A stretch of DNA of 64,000 nucleotides from an uncultured Sphingomonadaceae bacterium (GCA_947496865.1 CANMEE010000002.1:1073825-1137824), one strand, 5' to 3'. Counted from the first letter of the stretch, positions 56,535 through 64,000 are shown. Numbers and translations: made by a program. The notes: generated from the letters alone by a model not told the origin.

Positions 56535-57461
56535 ATGCGAACCAAGCAAACTTTGGCGATAACCGGCGCGACTGGTTTTGTGGGTGGACATCTGCTCAAT
56601 CTCGCCGTGCGGGCTGGCTTCCCCGTCCGTGCGCTGACCCGTCGGACTCAAGATGACCGGCCCAATGTGACATGGGTACGTGGCGCGTTGGATAACCCGG
56701 CTAGCCTTAGCGTTTTGTGCACTGGCGCTGATGTGGTGATCCACATAGCTGGCGTGGTCAATGCACCCACACGCGACGGCTTTGAAGCCGGTAATGTCGC
56801 TGGAACATTAGCAGTTGTAGAGGCAGCGAAAAAAGCCGGATGCCAACGGTTCATTCACGTTTCATCACTCGCGGCAACCTTGCCTAGGCTCTCCATTTAC
56901 GGTGAAACCAAAGCTAAGGCCGAGAAAATCGTGAAAAGCAGCGGGCTCGATTGGACGATCATACGCCCCCCTGCCATCTATGGTCCCGGCGACGGCGAAA
57001 TGCTCGAGCTGTTCAAAATGGCAAAAATGGGTTTCATCACTTTGCCACCCGATGCTGATGGCCGTCTTTCCGCCATTCATGTTGATGATCTGTCGCGTGC
57101 GTTAATGACCATCATTCCCGAACATGAAGATCTCACCGCTAAAATCTTTGAAATAGACGATGGCAAAACCGGCGGTTGGACCCAGACCAGTTTTGCCAAA
57201 GCAATTGGCTGGGCGATGGGCAAACGGATCAAACCCATTGCGACCCCCAAATTCCTCCTCGAACTGGGCGCCAAAACGGATCGTCTCGTACGCCGCGACA
57301 AAGCCAAGTTGACGGAAGACCGGGTGAGCTATTTCTGCCATGATGACTGGACGGTCGATCCCGCCAAACGCCTTCCGCCAGAACTATGGACAGCCCAAAT
57401 TGAAACACGGCAGGGTCTGAAAGATACCGCCAAATGGTACCGTCAGAACGATTGGCTCTAA
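56535..57461 (+). CDS. NAD(P)-dependent epimerase/dehydratase-family (atypical SDR, NDUFA9-like) protein
   Basis: 308 aa. ITGATGFVGGHL Rossmann motif and a YGETKAKAE catalytic YxxxK. Confidence 0.8.
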   Translation: MRTKQTLAITGATGFVGGHLLNLAVRAGFPVRALTRRTQDDRPNVTWVRGALDNPASLSVLCTGADVVIHIAGVVNAPTRDGFEAGNVAGTLAVVEAAKKAGCQRFIHVSSLAATLPRLSIYGETKAKAEKIVKSSGLDWTIIRPPAIYGPGDGEMLELFKMAKMGFITLPPDADGRLSAIHVDDLSRALMTIIPEHEDLTAKIFEIDDGKTGGWTQTSFAKAIGWAMGKRIKPIATPKFLLELGAKTDRLVRRDKAKLTEDRVSYFCHDDWTVDPAKRLPPELWTAQIETRQGLKDTAKWYRQNDWL

Positions 57462-57529: not shown

Positions 57530-58726
57530 ATGCCAAGCAACGCTGCGGTGCGCGACGATGTGCCAATCCATAATTTCGATATTTATGCCGAGCCAGCAAT
57601 TAAGGTTGATGTCCACGATGCCTTTCTCGCTCTGAAAAGCGAAGCCCCGCCGTTGTTTTGGACGCCTGCCAATGGTGGCCATTGGATAGTGACCGACGGC
57701 GATCTCATGATCGACCTCCTCCGCAAGCCCAATATCTTTTCAAATGAGAATTTTTCGATTCCCCACATTGAGAATATACCAAAGACGATCCCGCTCTCCC
57801 TCGATCCGCCTGAGCATCGCCCCTACCGCCAAATGATGCGTCCGTTTTTTGAGAAAAAAGCGATAACGCCGTTGCAAGATCGAATACAGCAATGGGCGGA
57901 CAGACTTATCGGGGCGGTAAAAACCGATGGACAATGCGAATTTGTTGAAGCGGTTGGTTCGCGCTTCCCGGTATCGGTTTTCATGGAAATGCTGGGGTTA
58001 CCGCTCGACCGGTTTGATGAATTTCGCGCATTGGTGAACGAGAATTTTGAACTCGCCGGAACGCCTGATGCGGCAGCGGTGCAGCAAAAAATCGTCGCGA
58101 TACTGGCGGAATTTGTGAAAGTGCGTCAGGCCGATCCCCAAGATGATATGATGAGCCATATCATCCAATCCGACATTGATGGCCGCGCACTTTCTTTCGA
58201 AGAACTGCTCTCCATCGCGCATTTATTGTTCCTCGCTGGCCTTGATACTGTAGTCAACGCGCTGAGTTTTAGTATGAAGCATCTGGCCGTAAATACGGCA
58301 CTGCAACAGCGGATTATTGATGATCCTGCCTGCATCCCCGATGTCACCGAGGAATTGTTACGCCGCTACAGCTTCGTCAACCTCCCCCGCCAAATTAACG
58401 AAGACACAACACTAGGCGGGCAAAAATTATCCAAGGGCGAGAAGATAATCTGTCCACTGGCTATGATCGGATGGGAGGATAAGCTCAACGAAGACCCAAT
58501 GACCGTTTCCATCGACCGCAAACATTATCGCCATGGCGCTTTTGGGTCAGGAATCCACACTTGCCTCGGGTTGCATCTGGCGCGGATGGAGCTGCATATT
58601 TTTTATGAAACCTGGTTCCGTGAGATTGGCAAATTTGAGTTGCAGCCGGATCAACCGCAAGGAGCCATGCGCGGCGGCGTTGTTTGGGCTATTGAAGACC
58701 TATGGCTCCGCTGGGGACAGGCCTAA
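57530..58726 (+). CDS. Cytochrome P450
   Basis: 398 aa. Heme-binding loop FGSGIHTCLGLHLAR, ExxR (EELLRR), and I-helix LLFLAGLDTV. Confidence 0.92.
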   Translation: MPSNAAVRDDVPIHNFDIYAEPAIKVDVHDAFLALKSEAPPLFWTPANGGHWIVTDGDLMIDLLRKPNIFSNENFSIPHIENIPKTIPLSLDPPEHRPYRQMMRPFFEKKAITPLQDRIQQWADRLIGAVKTDGQCEFVEAVGSRFPVSVFMEMLGLPLDRFDEFRALVNENFELAGTPDAAAVQQKIVAILAEFVKVRQADPQDDMMSHIIQSDIDGRALSFEELLSIAHLLFLAGLDTVVNALSFSMKHLAVNTALQQRIIDDPACIPDVTEELLRRYSFVNLPRQINEDTTLGGQKLSKGEKIICPLAMIGWEDKLNEDPMTVSIDRKHYRHGAFGSGIHTCLGLHLARMELHIFYETWFREIGKFELQPDQPQGAMRGGVVWAIEDLWLRWGQA

Positions 58727-59334
58727 CCTTGCAGTAACGGACCGGCAAACTGCTCGGCAAGATACGTAACAAAGGTCAGCGAGAGGCCGAGCAGAAACAC
58801 GCGGTAGGCAAGACCCAGATAACGGTATTTTTTGCGCTCCAGCACCAGGCCCATTTGATATATATCGCGCAGCATTGTGCGATAGACCGTTTCCTGATCC
58901 ACGAAACTCTCGGTCAACAGCCTGTCCTTAAACTCCTCCTCCGATATTTTTGAAAACGCACCAAAAAACAGCATATTGGGATTGGCACCCGACCGGATTT
59001 TAGTCGCTGGCATCACTGCAATCGCGGCTAAGCCCGCAGCAGAAAATGCCGAGATCGCAAGGATCAGCAAAGGCAAAGAAAAGCTACTCGCATGGCTTTG
59101 CCCGATCGCCAATGTGAAGACCACAAATGTCGCACCGATCAGCATATTTGCCTTATGATCCGCCATCAGACTGAGTTGGACATGATGCTGCTGTGTGGTG
59201 CGCAGCAATTGGATGACTTCATCAGGCCATTTTCGTCCCTCGGACACGCGTCGCCCTCCACAAAAGCGCGACCCGATGCGCCCAAAGAGTGGCACAGTCG
59301 GCGCAATTGGGCAAGTTGCGGCCGATATACCCAT
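58723..59334 (-). CDS. DUF5706 / PycTM-like membrane protein (start uncertain)
   Basis: LLRTTQQHHVQLSLMADHKANMLIGATFVVFTLAI, followed by further TM helices, resembles the DUF5706 family as I recall it. ATG 59334 is preferred over the tracked 59418, which would leave 16 nt to the divergent ACP gene. Confidence 0.55.
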   Translation of the reverse strand: MGISAATCPIAPTVPLFGRIGSRFCGGRRVSEGRKWPDEVIQLLRTTQQHHVQLSLMADHKANMLIGATFVVFTLAIGQSHASSFSLPLLILAISAFSAAGLAAIAVMPATKIRSGANPNMLFFGAFSKISEEEFKDRLLTESFVDQETVYRTMLRDIYQMGLVLERKKYRYLGLAYRVFLLGLSLTFVTYLAEQFAGPLLQG

Positions 59335-59434
59335 GCTTGTGCCGCGTTTCGGCCTTATTCGCTTGCCAATGGGGGGATCATATTGGCAAAGGTCGCTTAG
59401 AGTGAAGCAGACCAGCATATTGGGGAATTAAAAC

Positions 59435-59680
59435 ATGGCAAGTCGCGAAGAAATTATGGCTAAGGTTGAGGCTTTGATAGGCCCATTTAATAATAAAGGC
59501 GTTGCACTGAAAGATGCGACCACGTTCGCTGGCGATCTGGAATGGGACAGTCTCACGGTCATGGATTTTGTCGCTGCCGTAGAAGATGAATTTGATATCA
59601 TCATCACCATGAACATGCAGGCCGAAATTGAAACCGTCGGACAGCTGGCCGATGCGGTTGCCAAGTTGATGGATAACTAG
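59435..59680 (+). CDS. Acyl carrier protein (sphingolipid-pathway type, by context)
   Basis: 81 aa. Phosphopantetheine attachment motif LEWDSLTVMDFV. About 100 nt upstream of spt. Confidence 0.85.
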   Translation: MASREEIMAKVEALIGPFNNKGVALKDATTFAGDLEWDSLTVMDFVAAVEDEFDIIITMNMQAEIETVGQLADAVAKLMDN

Positions 59681-59779: not shown

Positions 59780-60979
59780 ATGACTGACCTTTTGAGTAAA
59801 TTCGATCCGCTAATCCAGGAACGCGAAACGCTTCTCGCGACGGGCGTGAAAGATCCATTCTCCCTAGTAATGGAAGAAGTGAAATCACCGACCGTGGCGG
59901 TATGCAATGGCAAAGAGACCATTTTGCTGGGTACCTATAATTATATGGGCATGACGTTTGACGACGATGTGCGGGAAGCGGGCCTAACGGCGCTGAAAGA
60001 ATTTGGCTCCGGAACCACCGGTAGCCGCGTTCTCAATGGCACATACAGCCCGCACAGAGATTGCGAAGAAGCGCTCAAAGAATTTTACGACATGGACCAT
60101 GCGATGGTCTTTTCCACCGGCTATCAGGCCAATTTGGGAATTATTTCGACACTGGCTGGCAAGGGTGATTATGTCATTCTGGACATTGACAGCCATGCGT
60201 CCATTTATGACGGCTGTGCGATGGGCAATGCAGAAGTTGTTGCGTTCCGCCACAATGATGTTGAGGCTCTGGAAAAGCGTCTGAAGCGTCTTCCTGCCGA
60301 AGCTGGTAAGTTGGTCGTGCTCGAAGGCGTATATTCGATGCTCGGCGACGTCGCACCGCTCAAAGAAATGATCCGTGTCTGCATGGAAAACGGCGCGATG
60401 ACCTTAGTCGACGAGGCTCATAGCATGGGCTTTATCGGTGATAATGGCCGCGGCGTTTGCGAAGAACAGGGCGTTATTGACGACGTTGATTTTATCATCG
60501 GCACCTTCAGCAAGTCTGTCGGAACCGTTGGTGGTTTCTGTGTTTCCAACCATCCCAAATTTGAAATCATGCGGCTGGTTTGCCGCCCCTATGTATTTAC
60601 CGCCTCGCTACCGCCTAGCGTTATGGCAACTGCCAGCACTTCCATCCGCAAGCTGATGCACAGCGGAAACAAACGCGCACATTTATGGGAAAACAGCAAG
60701 AAGCTCCACAAGGGCCTGCGCGATCTTGGTTTTGAGTTAGGAACTCCCGAAGCGCAAAGCGCGATTATCGCGGTGATCATGCCGGATCTGGAACGGGGCG
60801 CGATGATGTGGCAAGCCCTGCTCGCCGAAGGGCTGTACGTCAATCTGGCGCGACCACCGGCAACACCAGCGAATATGACCCTGCTACGCTGCTCTCTCTG
60901 TGCCGAGCACACGTCCGAGCAAGTCGATCAGATTTTAGGCATGTTTAAAGCGGCTGGCAAAGCGGTAGGGGCGATTTGA
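59780..60979 (+). CDS. spt: Serine palmitoyltransferase (alpha-oxoamine synthase family)
   Basis: 399 aa. DLLSKFDPLIQERETLLATGVKDPFSLVMEEVKSPT...ILLGTYNYMGMTFD and the PLP-Lys motif GTFSKSVGTVGGF. Long colinear similarity to Sphingomonas paucimobilis SPT as I remember it. Confidence 0.9.
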   Translation: MTDLLSKFDPLIQERETLLATGVKDPFSLVMEEVKSPTVAVCNGKETILLGTYNYMGMTFDDDVREAGLTALKEFGSGTTGSRVLNGTYSPHRDCEEALKEFYDMDHAMVFSTGYQANLGIISTLAGKGDYVILDIDSHASIYDGCAMGNAEVVAFRHNDVEALEKRLKRLPAEAGKLVVLEGVYSMLGDVAPLKEMIRVCMENGAMTLVDEAHSMGFIGDNGRGVCEEQGVIDDVDFIIGTFSKSVGTVGGFCVSNHPKFEIMRLVCRPYVFTASLPPSVMATASTSIRKLMHSGNKRAHLWENSKKLHKGLRDLGFELGTPEAQSAIIAVIMPDLERGAMMWQALLAEGLYVNLARPPATPANMTLLRCSLCAEHTSEQVDQILGMFKAAGKAVGAI

Positions 60980-61000: not shown

Positions 61001-61795
61001 ATGACCAACCCCATCCTTATCGAACAACGCGGCGCGATCGAGATACTCTCTCTCAATCGACCGGATAAACTCAACACCATGAACGAAGACATGATCTTCG
61101 CGCTGCAAGAATATTTCCGCGATCTACAGGATAGACATGATATTCGAGTGGTGTTGTTCCGCGCCGAAGGCCGCGCCTTTTGTGCCGGTCTAGATATCGG
61201 GGCATGGAAAAATGATGGCTCGCGCGGCCAAGTGCAGCATATCTGGCGGACCCAAAGAAGCATTGCGACGGTTATGCAGTTGATGCGACAATGTCCACAA
61301 CCGATTATTGCCCTCGGGCAAGGCGCGGCTTGTGGCGGCGGTTTCTCGCTGCTGCTTGCCAGCGATGTCCGCTATGGTGCGCCCAGTCTGAAAATGAACG
61401 CGGCCTACATAAAAATAGGGCTTGGCGGCTGTGATATGGGATCGAGCTATTTCCTGCCGCGGCTTGTCGGATCATCGCTCGCCTCAGAACTGCTCCTGAC
61501 CGGCCGCTTCATTCACGCCGAGCGAGCCGAAAAATTGGGGTTGATCAGCGACACTGTCGAAGAAGACAAACTGCTCTCCACTGGCCTATCACTGGCCGAA
61601 GAGATGTTAGAAACCGCGCCAATGGGTCTGCGGCTCACAAAAGATGCGCTCAACCGTAATATCGATGCCCAAAGCTTTGAAGCTGCAATGGCGATTGAAG
61701 ATCGACAACAAGCTATGTTGAGCATGACCGAAGACAGTCGGGAAGCAGCCAAAGCCTTTTTCAGCAAGCGAAAGCCGGATTACAAGGATCGTTGA
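61001..61795 (+). CDS. Enoyl-CoA hydratase/isomerase (crotonase) family protein
   Basis: 264 aa. Crotonase oxyanion-hole region (FCAGLDI...GAACGGGFSLLLASDVRYG). Confidence 0.85.
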   Translation: MTNPILIEQRGAIEILSLNRPDKLNTMNEDMIFALQEYFRDLQDRHDIRVVLFRAEGRAFCAGLDIGAWKNDGSRGQVQHIWRTQRSIATVMQLMRQCPQPIIALGQGAACGGGFSLLLASDVRYGAPSLKMNAAYIKIGLGGCDMGSSYFLPRLVGSSLASELLLTGRFIHAERAEKLGLISDTVEEDKLLSTGLSLAEEMLETAPMGLRLTKDALNRNIDAQSFEAAMAIEDRQQAMLSMTEDSREAAKAFFSKRKPDYKDR

Positions 61796-61804
61796 TCCGA
61801 TCAA

Positions 61805-62200
61805 CTAACGATCGCGATTTTCGGTTCCCTGCCCCGCCGTAATGAAGAGCGCCGTCGCTTCGCCCGCAACATCTGCCGTATGCCAGACGCCGGGTGGATT
61901 GATCGCATATTCGCCTTCTCCGAGCACGATCTGTTTTTCTGATCCATCGTTCATTTGCTGAATCAGGGACATTTCGCCCTTAATACATATGACGACCTCG
62001 GCGCCGACGGGATGCATTTCCCAGACCGCCCAAGGCTCGGTAAAATTGTGCAGCGATACCAGACGTCCTTCTGCGCCATCATTGGCGTGACGCTCGCCAT
62101 AGGCCTGATACCAAGCCGGATCGCCTGTAAAGGGGGCTTCCGAAAACGCAGTTGCACCGAGCCCGAGATGGATCGGCTTGTCGGTTAGTTTATCAGCCAT
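61805..62200 (-). CDS. Cupin-domain protein
   Basis: 131 aa. Cupin beta-barrel motifs (WEMHPVGAEVVICIKGEM...PPGVWHTADV). Confidence 0.65.
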   Translation of the reverse strand: MADKLTDKPIHLGLGATAFSEAPFTGDPAWYQAYGERHANDGAEGRLVSLHNFTEPWAVWEMHPVGAEVVICIKGEMSLIQQMNDGSEKQIVLGEGEYAINPPGVWHTADVAGEATALFITAGQGTENRDR

Positions 62201-62237
62201 AGTAACGCCTCCTCAAAATGCAAAAGCACATTCTACC

Positions 62238-63140
62238 CTATTTAATCGCCCCGCCAGCAATTAATCGCGGCAACATCATCAAAGCGCCCAATATTGGCCA
62301 TTTGCGCTGCCACGGTTTGACCTCGTAACTGGTTCCGGCATGGCGGTTTATCTTCCAAGCAAGATAGTCGATCCCGCCTGCATAGGTTCCTGACGCCTTT
62401 GCTAAGCGCGCTAATGTAAGCAGCTTGCCATTGCGGCGCAGTGTTTTCCAACGCTTTTCAGCTTCATCCAACGACAGTTCACCAGATTCTGATGGATCCT
62501 GATCTTGCATTGTTGCCATGGTCGCGAGACCAAAGCGTTCATAGCGTTCCAGATCGGAATCGACGACCGAACCAGGGCGATTACCGCGCTCCGCCCGCAA
62601 TTCAGCGCCATAGGTCAGTTCAAAGCCGCGATGGAATATACGTACCGGTGTCTGCGGCTGGATACCCAGAAGCGGTAGGGCCAGCTCAAACAAGGTTATC
62701 GGCGCGCGCGATATTGCCGCGACAGCCTTTTCTTTGGCCGCTTCATCTGCACACCAGACCAGTCGCGATGGCTGCGCAAAACGCGCCCAGACACTCACTG
62801 CACTGGCTTCGGGACCGTTTAGTCTATGAAAATCTTCTTCGCTCAGCACCGCTAATTTTGCGACCAGGCCGTCATGTTCGGCCGGAAAAACATTGGGTGG
62901 GAGCAGCTTATTCGCTCGAACCAACCAACTTTTTCCGTAGGCCGCTTCATAGCTGGAAACGACCAGATAAAAATCGAGCATCTGCCCGTCCAATTCCGCC
63001 GTCCGCAGACACGAACCGTAAAACAGCACCGCGCGAGAAGCGTCACCATATTGCGCCGCAATCGACTGGGCAAATGCAGCCACACGCGGTTCGACTGGTT
63101 CTGCCAGCTCCGCTTCTATGAGAGGTTTAAGGTGATTCAC
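62238..63140 (-). CDS. Tam41/Mmp37-like nucleotidyltransferase-fold protein (phosphatidate cytidylyltransferase-like)
   Basis: 300 aa. Colinear motifs: VLFYGSCL, MLDFYLVV, PPNVF, VAKLAVLSEEDF, WARFAQPSRL, LTYGAELR. In yeast Tam41, as I recall it, the matching motifs are GYGSGVF, IDIILGV, GVYFNPF, VKYGVVS, LAGRLQKP, LSYAGDIR. Needs HMM confirmation. Confidence 0.55.
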   Translation of the reverse strand: MNHLKPLIEAELAEPVEPRVAAFAQSIAAQYGDASRAVLFYGSCLRTAELDGQMLDFYLVVSSYEAAYGKSWLVRANKLLPPNVFPAEHDGLVAKLAVLSEEDFHRLNGPEASAVSVWARFAQPSRLVWCADEAAKEKAVAAISRAPITLFELALPLLGIQPQTPVRIFHRGFELTYGAELRAERGNRPGSVVDSDLERYERFGLATMATMQDQDPSESGELSLDEAEKRWKTLRRNGKLLTLARLAKASGTYAGGIDYLAWKINRHAGTSYEVKPWQRKWPILGALMMLPRLIAGGAIK

Positions 63141-63155
63141 CCGATGGATGATAGC

Positions 63156-64000
63156 CTAAGCAGCGAGGCGAAGGAAAGACACTGGTTTGGTAGATTTCAA
63201 AACAATCGGCTGGCCTTCTTGCGCGCGAAACAATTCACCGTCCATGACGACATTGCTATTCTTGCCTTCTATGCGGATCACGTCGCCCTGCTCAAGATGA
63301 ATACCTTTTTGCACATTTTTACCGAGACGGCCAAATAAGGCTGATAATATAAAGCGAACCAAAGCCGCTGGCTTTTGGTCAATCGCCATTAGTTGTAGAC
63401 GTCCGCGTTTGCCACGCGACTGAGTCAAGCGCCGCATCAACAGCAATTTTTCCAGGGTCGTCACGATCAGAATCGCAAAATTCCCCTGATACTGGCCTTT
63501 TTTAATCAATGAAATACTGATTGGCGATGGCTTGTTCGGCAAGAACTTAGCCCGTATTCCAAACAAAACCGAGGCCAGTGCCGCAAAAACTGTCAATATA
63601 TGGGATGCCGCATTGGGTAGTCCCAGTGGATATATCTTGTGACGGCAATAGAGAATAAATTCTGACAAGCCTGCACCACCTAGGAACATGCCCAGCACGA
63701 CTTTACTGTCTTTACCGCCGTCAGATAAAGCAATCAGCTCGCGATCAACGAGATGCTCATGCAAATCATGCTTTGCCATTTCGACGATGCGTTCCAGCGC
63801 CTTTAGTGGATTGCCTTCTGCCCCGAGGTCTAGAGCAATCAAGTTGGTCTTGCCATTGGGCAACACTGCGACTGGTGGCGGATTATCACCAAAATGCCCG
63901 CCCTGGTGCAATTCTGTAAGAGCGGCCTGAACGGTCCCATCCCCGCCATTAATAACCAGCACCTTGGGTTTCACTTTGGCAATGGTTTGCAGCGCTTTCC
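63156..64000 (-). CDS. DAGK/LCB5-family lipid kinase (5' end beyond the right edge)
   Basis: VLVINGGDGT catalytic-domain motif. The reading frame stays open upstream of the tracked GTG (…KALQTIAKVKPKVLVINGGDGT) to position 64000. 15 nt upstream of the Tam41-like gene. Confidence 0.75.
   Translation of the reverse strand, partial: KALQTIAKVKPKVLVINGGDGTVQAALTELHQGGHFGDNPPPVAVLPNGKTNLIALDLGAEGNPLKALERIVEMAKHDLHEHLVDRELIALSDGGKDSKVVLGMFLGGAGLSEFILYCRHKIYPLGLPNAASHILTVFAALASVLFGIRAKFLPNKPSPISISLIKKGQYQGNFAILIVTTLEKLLLMRRLTQSRGKRGRLQLMAIDQKPAALVRFILSALFGRLGKNVQKGIHLEQGDVIRIEGKNSNVVMDGELFRAQEGQPIVLKSTKPVSFLRLAA

Follow-up and report, generated by a model that had tools for sequence, protein, structure and literature searches.

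The gene pair and its setting

The window analysed here, a stretch of 64,000 nucleotides from an uncultured Sphingomonadaceae bacterium (GCA_947496865.1 CANMEE010000002.1:1073825-1137824), closes with three minus-strand genes, for a lipid kinase, a protein of 300 amino acids (aa) and a cupin, which are convergent with plus-strand genes for a sphingolipid acyl carrier protein (ACP), the serine palmitoyltransferase Spt and an enoyl-CoA hydratase (ECH) (Table 1). Our subject is the first two, a kinase resembling CpgB and a protein resembling CpgC of the ceramide-phosphoglycerate (CPG) pathway of Caulobacter, an organism in which anionic sphingolipids can replace lipopolysaccharide and set its polymyxin sensitivity. 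A gap of 15 nt separates the kinase stop codon from the GTG start (63140) of the 300-aa open reading frame (ORF), and another of 37 nt, with GAGGAGG inside it, separates this ORF from the cupin gene; Spt lies 1.3 kb from the CpgC-like gene and is convergent with it. The layout given in an initial annotation of this DNA, of a kinase followed 15 nt later by the 300-aa protein and then a cupin, all converging on spt, is borne out by the ORF coordinates on the minus strand. A scan for promoters and terminators gave no signal exceeding shuffled expectation. The same layout recurs in a relative with 93% identity (L002, a contig of 933 kb), where the LptF/LptG pair, a DUF2141 gene, the kinase, the 300-aa gene and the cupin follow one another, with ECH, Spt, ACP and, further on, a CerR-like epimerase on the opposite strand.

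Table 1. Features of the window, by position and strand, with the basis for each assignment
Feature	Position	Strand	Basis
cpgB-like ceramide/lipid kinase (DAGK_cat)	63156..64000, runs past window end	-	Pfam DAGK_cat, synteny
Kinase stop TAG	63156-63158	-	translation check
GGDGT ATP-binding motif of kinase	63933..63947	-	translation check
cpgC-like gene, 300-aa Tam41-fold nucleotidyltransferase, proposed CTP:ceramide-1-phosphate cytidylyltransferase	62238..63140	-	family profile, AlphaFold2 model
Nucleotidyltransferase core motif Y41-G42-S43 ... D56-F-Y58, CpgC-like protein	62973..63020	-	alignment to YGS...D of S. pombe Tam41 (SpTam41)
K95 of CpgC-like protein	62856..62858	-	family-invariant; aligned to CTP-binding Lys, SpTam41 K156 / human K109
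R120-F-A-Q123-P124 motif, CpgC-like protein	62769..62783	-	aligned to Tam41 R-F-Q-K-P CTP pocket (Sp R180/K183/P184; human R133/K136/P137)
E180-L-R182-A-E184 invariant motif, second domain of CpgC-like protein	62589..62603	-	aligned to D-I-R...E of SpTam41
Hydrophobic cationic C-terminal tail (last ~30 residues) of CpgC-like protein	62238..62330	-	family net charge, predicted helices
Cupin_2 protein, 131 aa	61805..62200	-	Cupin_2, 32 bits vs 27.2 cut-off
Enoyl-CoA hydratase (ECH), between Spt and cupin	61001..61795	+	ECH_1, 152.6 bits
Serine palmitoyltransferase Spt	59780..60979	+	NCBIfam NF047603 SerpalmtaseAlphaP, 794 bits vs 670 cut-off
Sphingolipid acyl carrier protein ACP	59435..59680	+	PP-binding
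NAD-dependent epimerase/dehydratase-family protein, candidate CerR	56535..57461	+	Pfam Epimerase/NAD_binding_10
Membrane protein with PycTM (Pycsar effector) domain	58723-59418	-	79 bits
Cytochrome P450, between CerR-like gene and ACP/Spt	57530-58726	+	

The kinase belongs to the DAGK family with a GGDGT motif, as had been proposed: the part within the window scores 44.9 bits against Pfam DAGK_cat (PF00781; cut-off 23.6, E=1.1e-11). The full length, 324 aa, comes from a metagenome contig of 100% identity (L001), which places 44 N-terminal residues outside the window. Against the NCBIfam equivalogs for lipid kinases the protein reaches 17-27 bits, with cut-offs of 118-400, and the CxxxCxxC motif of eukaryotic CERK does not appear in the full-length sequence, which reads CVKNC and then DVF, the third Cys being absent. 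With the kinases that other phyla encode in cpgABC-type operons it shares 27-29% identity. The GGDG motif has been described for both CpgB and human CERK, and Caulobacter CpgB acts in vitro as a ceramide kinase, which can also convert diacylglycerol to phosphatidate (PMC10331486).

Fold and invariant residues of the 300-aa protein

Taken alone, the 300-aa protein matches nothing in Pfam at E<=1 and nothing in NCBIfam, and phmmer against the Protein Data Bank (PDB) gives no significant match; the profile named in the initial annotation as a check, Pfam Mmp37 (PF09139, gathering score 24 bits), is among those that do not recognise it, and taken to the letter that check would refute the reading given there. 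We therefore turned to the profile of its family. There are at least 8000 homologues, with 1155 cluster representatives (50% identity) at E<=1e-3, and for this reason the ORF is, as judged by sequence comparison, a real gene. Its closest relatives come from Parasphingorhabdus and Sphingorhabdus, and the family extends over Alpha- and Gammaproteobacteria and Verrucomicrobia. With P0254 as the query, the search for homologues yielded relatives in Rhodospirillales, Opitutaceae and Arenicellales, and none from Caulobacter.

Against the PDB, the profile of 113 full-length members (alignment A1) has a single significant match, to the Tam41 of Schizosaccharomyces pombe (6ig2/6ig4), with a colinear alignment and E=1.2e-4. 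Searched individually, 20 of the 113 members match Pfam Tam41_Mmp37 at E<=1, the best at 1.1e-6, and a further member, P0249, exceeds the gathering score with 34.3 bits. Since most members fall under this threshold, the family would form a branch separate from Tam41 proper. The reverse search, seeded with a fragment of SpTam41 in an essentially prokaryotic and metagenomic database, returned just one fragment of 92 aa.

Structure prediction leads to the same fold. AlphaFold2 models the window protein with confidence (pLDDT 94.7, pTM 0.91), and when the model is compared with the PDB by Foldseek, Tam41 takes each of the first five places, at E 1e-7 to 8e-6 and TM-scores of 0.47-0.59 over 270-284 columns. 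The best of these is 7ecd, a Firmicutes Tam41 with CTP-Mg (E=1.2e-7, TM 0.54/0.59, 272 columns), and the other four are chains of the S. pombe enzyme (6ig2/6ig4). Together, family profile and model identify the protein as a distant, predicted Tam41-fold nucleotidyltransferase, with P0249 as a member whose kinship can be read directly from Pfam. The colinear motif similarity to Tam41 in the first description is thus real at the level of the family profile and of structure, whilst it is weak in the window protein, which alone gives no match.

Could the protein instead be some other nucleotidyltransferase, perhaps ANT-like and adenylylating a hydroxyl group on ceramide itself or on a small molecule, or even a non-catalytic partner of the kinase? 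The second tier of Foldseek matches consists of aminoglycoside and lincosamide nucleotidyltransferases and HalB (E 1e-5 to 1e-3), and a few family members give weak matches to Polbeta and NTP_transf_2. However, these structures align with TM-scores of 0.25-0.39 (0.31-0.39 for the ANT(4') aminoglycoside nucleotidyltransferases), against 0.47-0.59 for Tam41, and the canonical second and third carboxylates are absent from the D56-F-Y58 motif. As for a non-catalytic partner, the presence of eleven invariant residues favours catalysis, and we regard this whole group of explanations as highly improbable.

The eleven residues, identical in 113/113 members, are G42, D56, P82, K95, R120, Q123, E180, R182, E184, Y259 and K263, with P124 kept in 110/113. 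The core motif YGS...D56-F-Y58 holds one carboxylate where the canonical number is two or three, and Tam41 likewise retains just one of the three acidic residues of nucleotidyltransferases (PMC11646218). In human TAMM41 the residues that bind cytidine triphosphate (CTP) are K109, R133 and K136, with Y110 corresponding to Y157 and P137 to P184 of the S. pombe enzyme (PMC8935507); PDB chain indices are offset by +6 from this numbering, as verified by the F240A mutation visible in 6ig2. In the alignment of family profile to SpTam41, K156, R180, K183 and P184 fall on K95, R120, Q123 and P124; of the three CTP contacts mapped in this way, those of K156 and R180 are therefore invariant in the family.

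The tail of the protein offers a further parallel. Throughout the family the C-terminal 30 residues are hydrophobic and carry a net charge that averages +5.4 (range +2 to +9); in the window protein the model places helices at residues 276-280 and 282-295, and the hydrophobic moment varies between 0.06 and 0.51 over segments of the tail and peaks at 0.51 in residues 283-294. Tam41 has an amphipathic C-terminal helix that binds the membrane (PMC7018664), and the tail described here may be a membrane-interface anchor of the same sort. At two other positions the window protein departs from its family: V93 (62862-62864), which it has in common with close Parasphingorhabdus relatives, and F169 (62634-62636). 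These may reflect a lineage difference in substrate or partner.

Gene order across genomes and the probable cpgB-cpgC assignment

We compared 81 loci, made up of the best 80 of 592 confirmed matches from a genome scan seeded with a 12-sequence subset of the family (all but one labelled Sphingomonadales or unclassified) and metagenome contig L002, with neighbours counted by tblastn. In 63 of them the kinase gene immediately precedes the CpgC-like gene; 74 have Spt within about 1-3 kb, nearly always in convergent orientation, 64 have ACP, 53-54 the LptF/LptG pair and 44 a CerR-like gene. The cupin follows a different pattern. It sits downstream of the CpgC-like gene in 12/81 loci, mostly Parasphingorhabdus, is not found in the distant loci L083-L089, and has no sequence relative in the PDB; ECH occurs in 16/81. 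Because of these low counts, cupin and ECH are lineage-specific insertions and not members of the pathway, and the cupin, placed in the head-group operon by the initial annotation, has to be removed from it.

The distant loci add weight to the link with the cpg genes. In an Opitutaceae locus (L085) a CDP-alcohol phosphotransferase (CDP-OH_P_transf) gene, a DAGK_cat gene and a CpgC-like gene stand in this order and converge on Spt, ACP and an acyl-ACP synthetase; a Dongiaceae locus (L087) has a three-gene operon of cpgABC type and a Limimonas locus (L088) holds the entire CC_1152-CC_1161 set, both again with the three genes in the Caulobacter order; L083 has kinase, CpgC-like, CpgA-like and CpgD-like genes; and in Arenicellales (L089) the kinase and CpgC-like genes overlap. 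In L084 (4390-6378) the two are joined in a natural fusion of 662 aa, P0208, with DAGK_cat at its N-terminus and the CpgC-like part at its C-terminus, encoded directly downstream of a CDP-OH_P_transf gene; the fusion and this neighbour would make a minimal, two-gene version of the pathway. As a separate observation, two loci that are not related to each other (L086 8358-9383 and L088 9072-10013) have a Sulfotransfer_1 gene as immediate neighbour of the CpgC-like one, which hints at other head-group chemistry; the CpgC-like protein of L086 carries an N-terminal extension of ~105 aa and exceeds the Pfam cut-off for Tam41, and no kinase gene adjoins it.

The published genetics comes from Caulobacter, where the order is CC_1159 cpgA (PgsA-like), CC_1160 cpgB, CC_1161 cpgC, CC_1162 spt and CC_1163 acp, with CpgB also known as CCNA_01218 and CpgC as CCNA_01219. 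Deletion of cpgB abolishes ceramide-1-phosphate (C1P), whilst deletion of cpgC leaves C1P and abolishes CPG (PMC9393093). In S. wittichii, Swit_3899 is acp, Swit_3900 spt, Swit_3902 the orthologue of CC_1161 (39% identity, 8e-44), Swit_3903 the orthologue of CC_1160, and Swit_3905/3906 are LptG2/F2 (Olea-Ozuna et al. 2024, PMC11324152). The layout of the window and of the related loci matches this one, which supports the same assignment here. Three lines of evidence agree, namely the conserved neighbourhood of Spt/ACP, the order cpgA-cpgB-cpgC in remote lineages and the natural fusion, and on these comparative sequence grounds the kinase and the 300-aa protein are very probably the Parasphingorhabdus counterparts of the Caulobacter cpgB/cpgC pair. 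The proposal that kinase and Tam41-like protein are sphingolipid head-group genes of the Caulobacter type is upheld on these same three lines. Peptides derived from the published primers for the Caulobacter cpgC deletion have no exact match among the family representatives; read one base off the stated frame, the primers give VAAELSQ and WRERRQ, which resemble the N- and C-terminal motifs of the family, a weak hint.

Gene order also bears on whether the 300-aa protein could be a genuine bacterial Tam41, turning phosphatidate into CDP-diacylglycerol for glycerophospholipids. Some of its relatives carry the automatic UniRef name 'Phosphatidate cytidylyltransferase', it has the predicted Tam41 fold with the CTP-binding Lys and Arg kept, and CpgB also converts diacylglycerol to phosphatidate in vitro (PMC10331486). 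Nevertheless, Spt/ACP and the ceramide kinase closely accompany the gene (63-74/81 loci), and in P0208 kinase and CpgC-like part form one protein; the loss of cpgC in Caulobacter removes CPG specifically and leaves C1P in place, and the cpgB deletion leaves phosphatidate unchanged (PMC10331486); and the family is a separate branch, mostly under the Tam41_Mmp37 threshold. We find it improbable that the lipid substrate is phosphatidate.

Several further neighbours deserve mention. The epimerase-family protein is a candidate ceramide reductase CerR by its position, which CerR (CC_1164) holds equivalently in Caulobacter (PMC11324152). The cytochrome P450 is present in just 4/81 related loci and is for that reason probably a recent lineage insertion. 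The PycTM protein, encoded between the P450 and ACP genes, has a homologue adjoining ACP in 24/81 Sphingomonadales loci; since a cyclase partner was not observed, it may be a membrane protein connected with sphingolipids instead of a defence effector. Just past the window's end, as judged from L002 (8493-8975), a DUF2141 gene lies directly upstream of the kinase, which it precedes in 57/81 loci; the LptF/LptG pair beside it scores above NCBIfam equivalog cut-offs and fits the idea of sphingolipid export by LptF2/G2 in Caulobacter. Finally, a gene of 396 aa near the cluster (L002 3563-4753, minus strand), without a Pfam or NCBIfam match, is kept in 47/81 loci and occupies the position of bCerS in S. 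wittichii and Caulobacter. It was compared with a 389-aa gene of L083, which likewise has no Pfam match, as a possible shared bCerS, and the two have no similarity.

Proposed chemistry and comparison with known systems

We posit a pathway of three steps. The kinase would make C1P, as has been shown biochemically for Caulobacter CpgB and as synteny and family membership suggest here. A peripheral-membrane enzyme of Tam41 fold would then bind a nucleoside triphosphate, probably CTP, in the basic pocket formed by K95, R120 and Q123, and the phosphate of C1P would attack the alpha-phosphate of CTP to give CDP-ceramide and pyrophosphate, in parallel to the reaction of phosphatidate and CTP to CDP-diacylglycerol and pyrophosphate. 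In the last step an enzyme of the CDP-alcohol phosphotransferase type, or perhaps CpgC itself, would exchange cytidine monophosphate for glycerate, phosphoglycerate or another alcohol, to yield a ceramide-phospho-X. We give this explanation as a whole, that is cpgB/cpgC counterparts, C1P, nucleotide activation and then head-group transfer, a probability of roughly 0.6. For the CDP-ceramide chemistry of the CpgC-like protein taken by itself, which we infer from the fold, the conserved residues, the kinase fusion and the CDP-alcohol phosphotransferase encoded in the same operon in other phyla, the odds appear about even. Of the initial suggestion that a Tam41-like enzyme activates phosphorylated ceramide, what stands is that activation of C1P by CTP is the most plausible chemistry; the mechanism itself is one drawn from fold, residues and synteny. 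The idea of a nucleoside diphosphate-activated ceramide has been put forward before, along with the observation that CC_1161 homologues carry the Tam41 entry IPR015222 of InterPro (Olea-Ozuna et al. 2024, PMC11324152).

A number of points weigh against this proposal. The window protein is ~13% identical to Tam41 and has no Pfam Tam41 match; the TM-scores of 0.47-0.59 are accompanied by root-mean-square deviations of 5-10 Å; and the model has no beta strands past residue 130, with the Tam41 'winged helix' not obviously reproduced. In the pocket itself the third mapped CTP position is an invariant Gln (Q123) and not Lys, and the window protein has V93 where 97/113 members have Arg and F169 where 108/113 have Trp. 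Orthology to CC_1161 rests on synteny and the published S. wittichii table. Genes resembling CpgA (CDP-OH_P_transf), CpgD and CC_1153 were not found in the window, nor generally in the 10-kb flanks of Sphingomonadales loci, among which one locus only matched the NTP_transf_3 query. As Caulobacter still makes CPG after deletion of cpgA (PMC9393093), CDP-ceramide is left with no assigned consumer; CDP-ceramide is mentioned in no paper of the literature searched, and the Klein group still terms the mechanism of CpgC unidentified (2025-2026).

The cpgA result also speaks for the original model of Zik et al., in which a CpgC-like protein joins glycerate or another alcohol directly to C1P in one step and no free nucleotide-activated ceramide is formed, with any activation coupled or enzyme-bound within the nucleotidyltransferase fold. 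In Caulobacter, cpgC is the one known gene required for the passage from C1P to CPG (PMC9393093), no CDP-alcohol transferase gene stands beside cpgBC in Sphingomonadales, and the additional invariant residues of the second domain, E180, R182, E184, Y259 and K263, could form a site for a second substrate. On the other hand, the joining of a phosphate monoester to an alcohol is energetically unfavourable without activation (PMC11324152), the conserved pocket corresponds to the CTP site of Tam41, and a CDP-OH_P_transf gene shares the operon in most of the distant lineages. Set against nucleotide activation of C1P, the single-step reaction seems unlikely to us, perhaps one case in several.

What, then, is added to the existing picture? 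The gene pair beside spt in Sphingomonadales, the Tam41 domain in CC_1161 and the activated-ceramide idea are all already published (PMC11324152), and bacterial homologues of Tam41 are known and have been crystallised (7ecd; PMC11646218). With a bacterial Tam41 structure already in hand, the suggestion that this gene is of interest for the origin of the mitochondrial pathway is weak and adds little; we set aside the possibility of an orthologue or ancestor of mitochondrial Tam41, as identity is ~13% and nothing in these data bears on it. New here are the confident structural match to Tam41, the mapping of CTP-pocket residues, the natural fusion of kinase and CpgC, and the demonstration that the cupin is incidental. 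CpgC is the sole step of the CPG pathway whose chemistry research groups still call 'unidentified' (2025-2026), and the model, the invariant pocket Lys and Arg, the fusion and the recurrent CDP-alcohol phosphotransferase together lead to the prediction that C1P and CTP would yield CDP-ceramide. Extended to the family at large, this would make CpgC-family proteins CTP:ceramide-1-phosphate cytidylyltransferases, and CDP-ceramide a general branch point for bacterial phosphosphingolipids as CDP-diacylglycerol is for glycerophospholipids, a generalisation to which we give slightly less than an even chance. If it holds, sphingolipids would have a lipid-nucleotide intermediate parallel to CDP-diacylglycerol, the Tam41 fold would have been recruited twice for the activation of a lipid phosphate, and the CDP-ceramide of Sphingomonadales, which have cpgB-cpgC by spt and no adjacent cpgA, would go towards some head group that is not diphosphoglycerate.

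Four known systems can be set beside this locus. Bacterial lipid kinases of the YegS/BmrU/DgkB type and eukaryotic CERK share the DAGK_cat domain and GGDG motif with the window kinase, which differs from them in its scores far below the equivalog cut-offs, in lacking the CxxxCxxC motif and in the linkage of its gene to spt. CpgD (CCNA_01210), a CTP:phosphoglycerate cytidylyltransferase, is a cytidylyltransferase of the same head-group pathway, and its activity establishes CDP-activated intermediates in that pathway; unlike the CpgC-like protein it has an unrelated GlmU/IspD-like NTP_transferase fold and activates the soluble head-group donor and not the lipid, and it has no homologue in the window.

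The closest counterpart is Caulobacter CpgB/CpgC itself, where too a DAGK_cat kinase lies just upstream of a protein of ~300 aa with 'no conserved domain', by a convergent spt-acp; other lineages have members of the family in the order cpgA-cpgB-cpgC, and the orthologues of S. wittichii and Zymomonas have been published. The differences are that the CDP-alcohol phosphotransferase gene cpgA is not adjacent here, and that cupin and ECH are inserted between cpgC and spt. With the CDP-diacylglycerol synthase Tam41/TAMM41/Mmp37 (PF09139; 6ig2, 6ig4, 7ecd), the top match in both profile and structure, the protein appears to share a nucleotidyltransferase N-domain followed by a helical second domain, the single carboxylate of YGS...D, the CTP-binding Lys and Arg (K95, R120) and a cationic, hydrophobic C-terminus. 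It is unlike Tam41 in its low identity and sub-threshold Pfam score, in having Gln for the second pocket Lys and in the absence of a predicted beta 'wing', and unlike it, too, in that the genomic and genetic context points to C1P, and not phosphatidate, as the lipid substrate.

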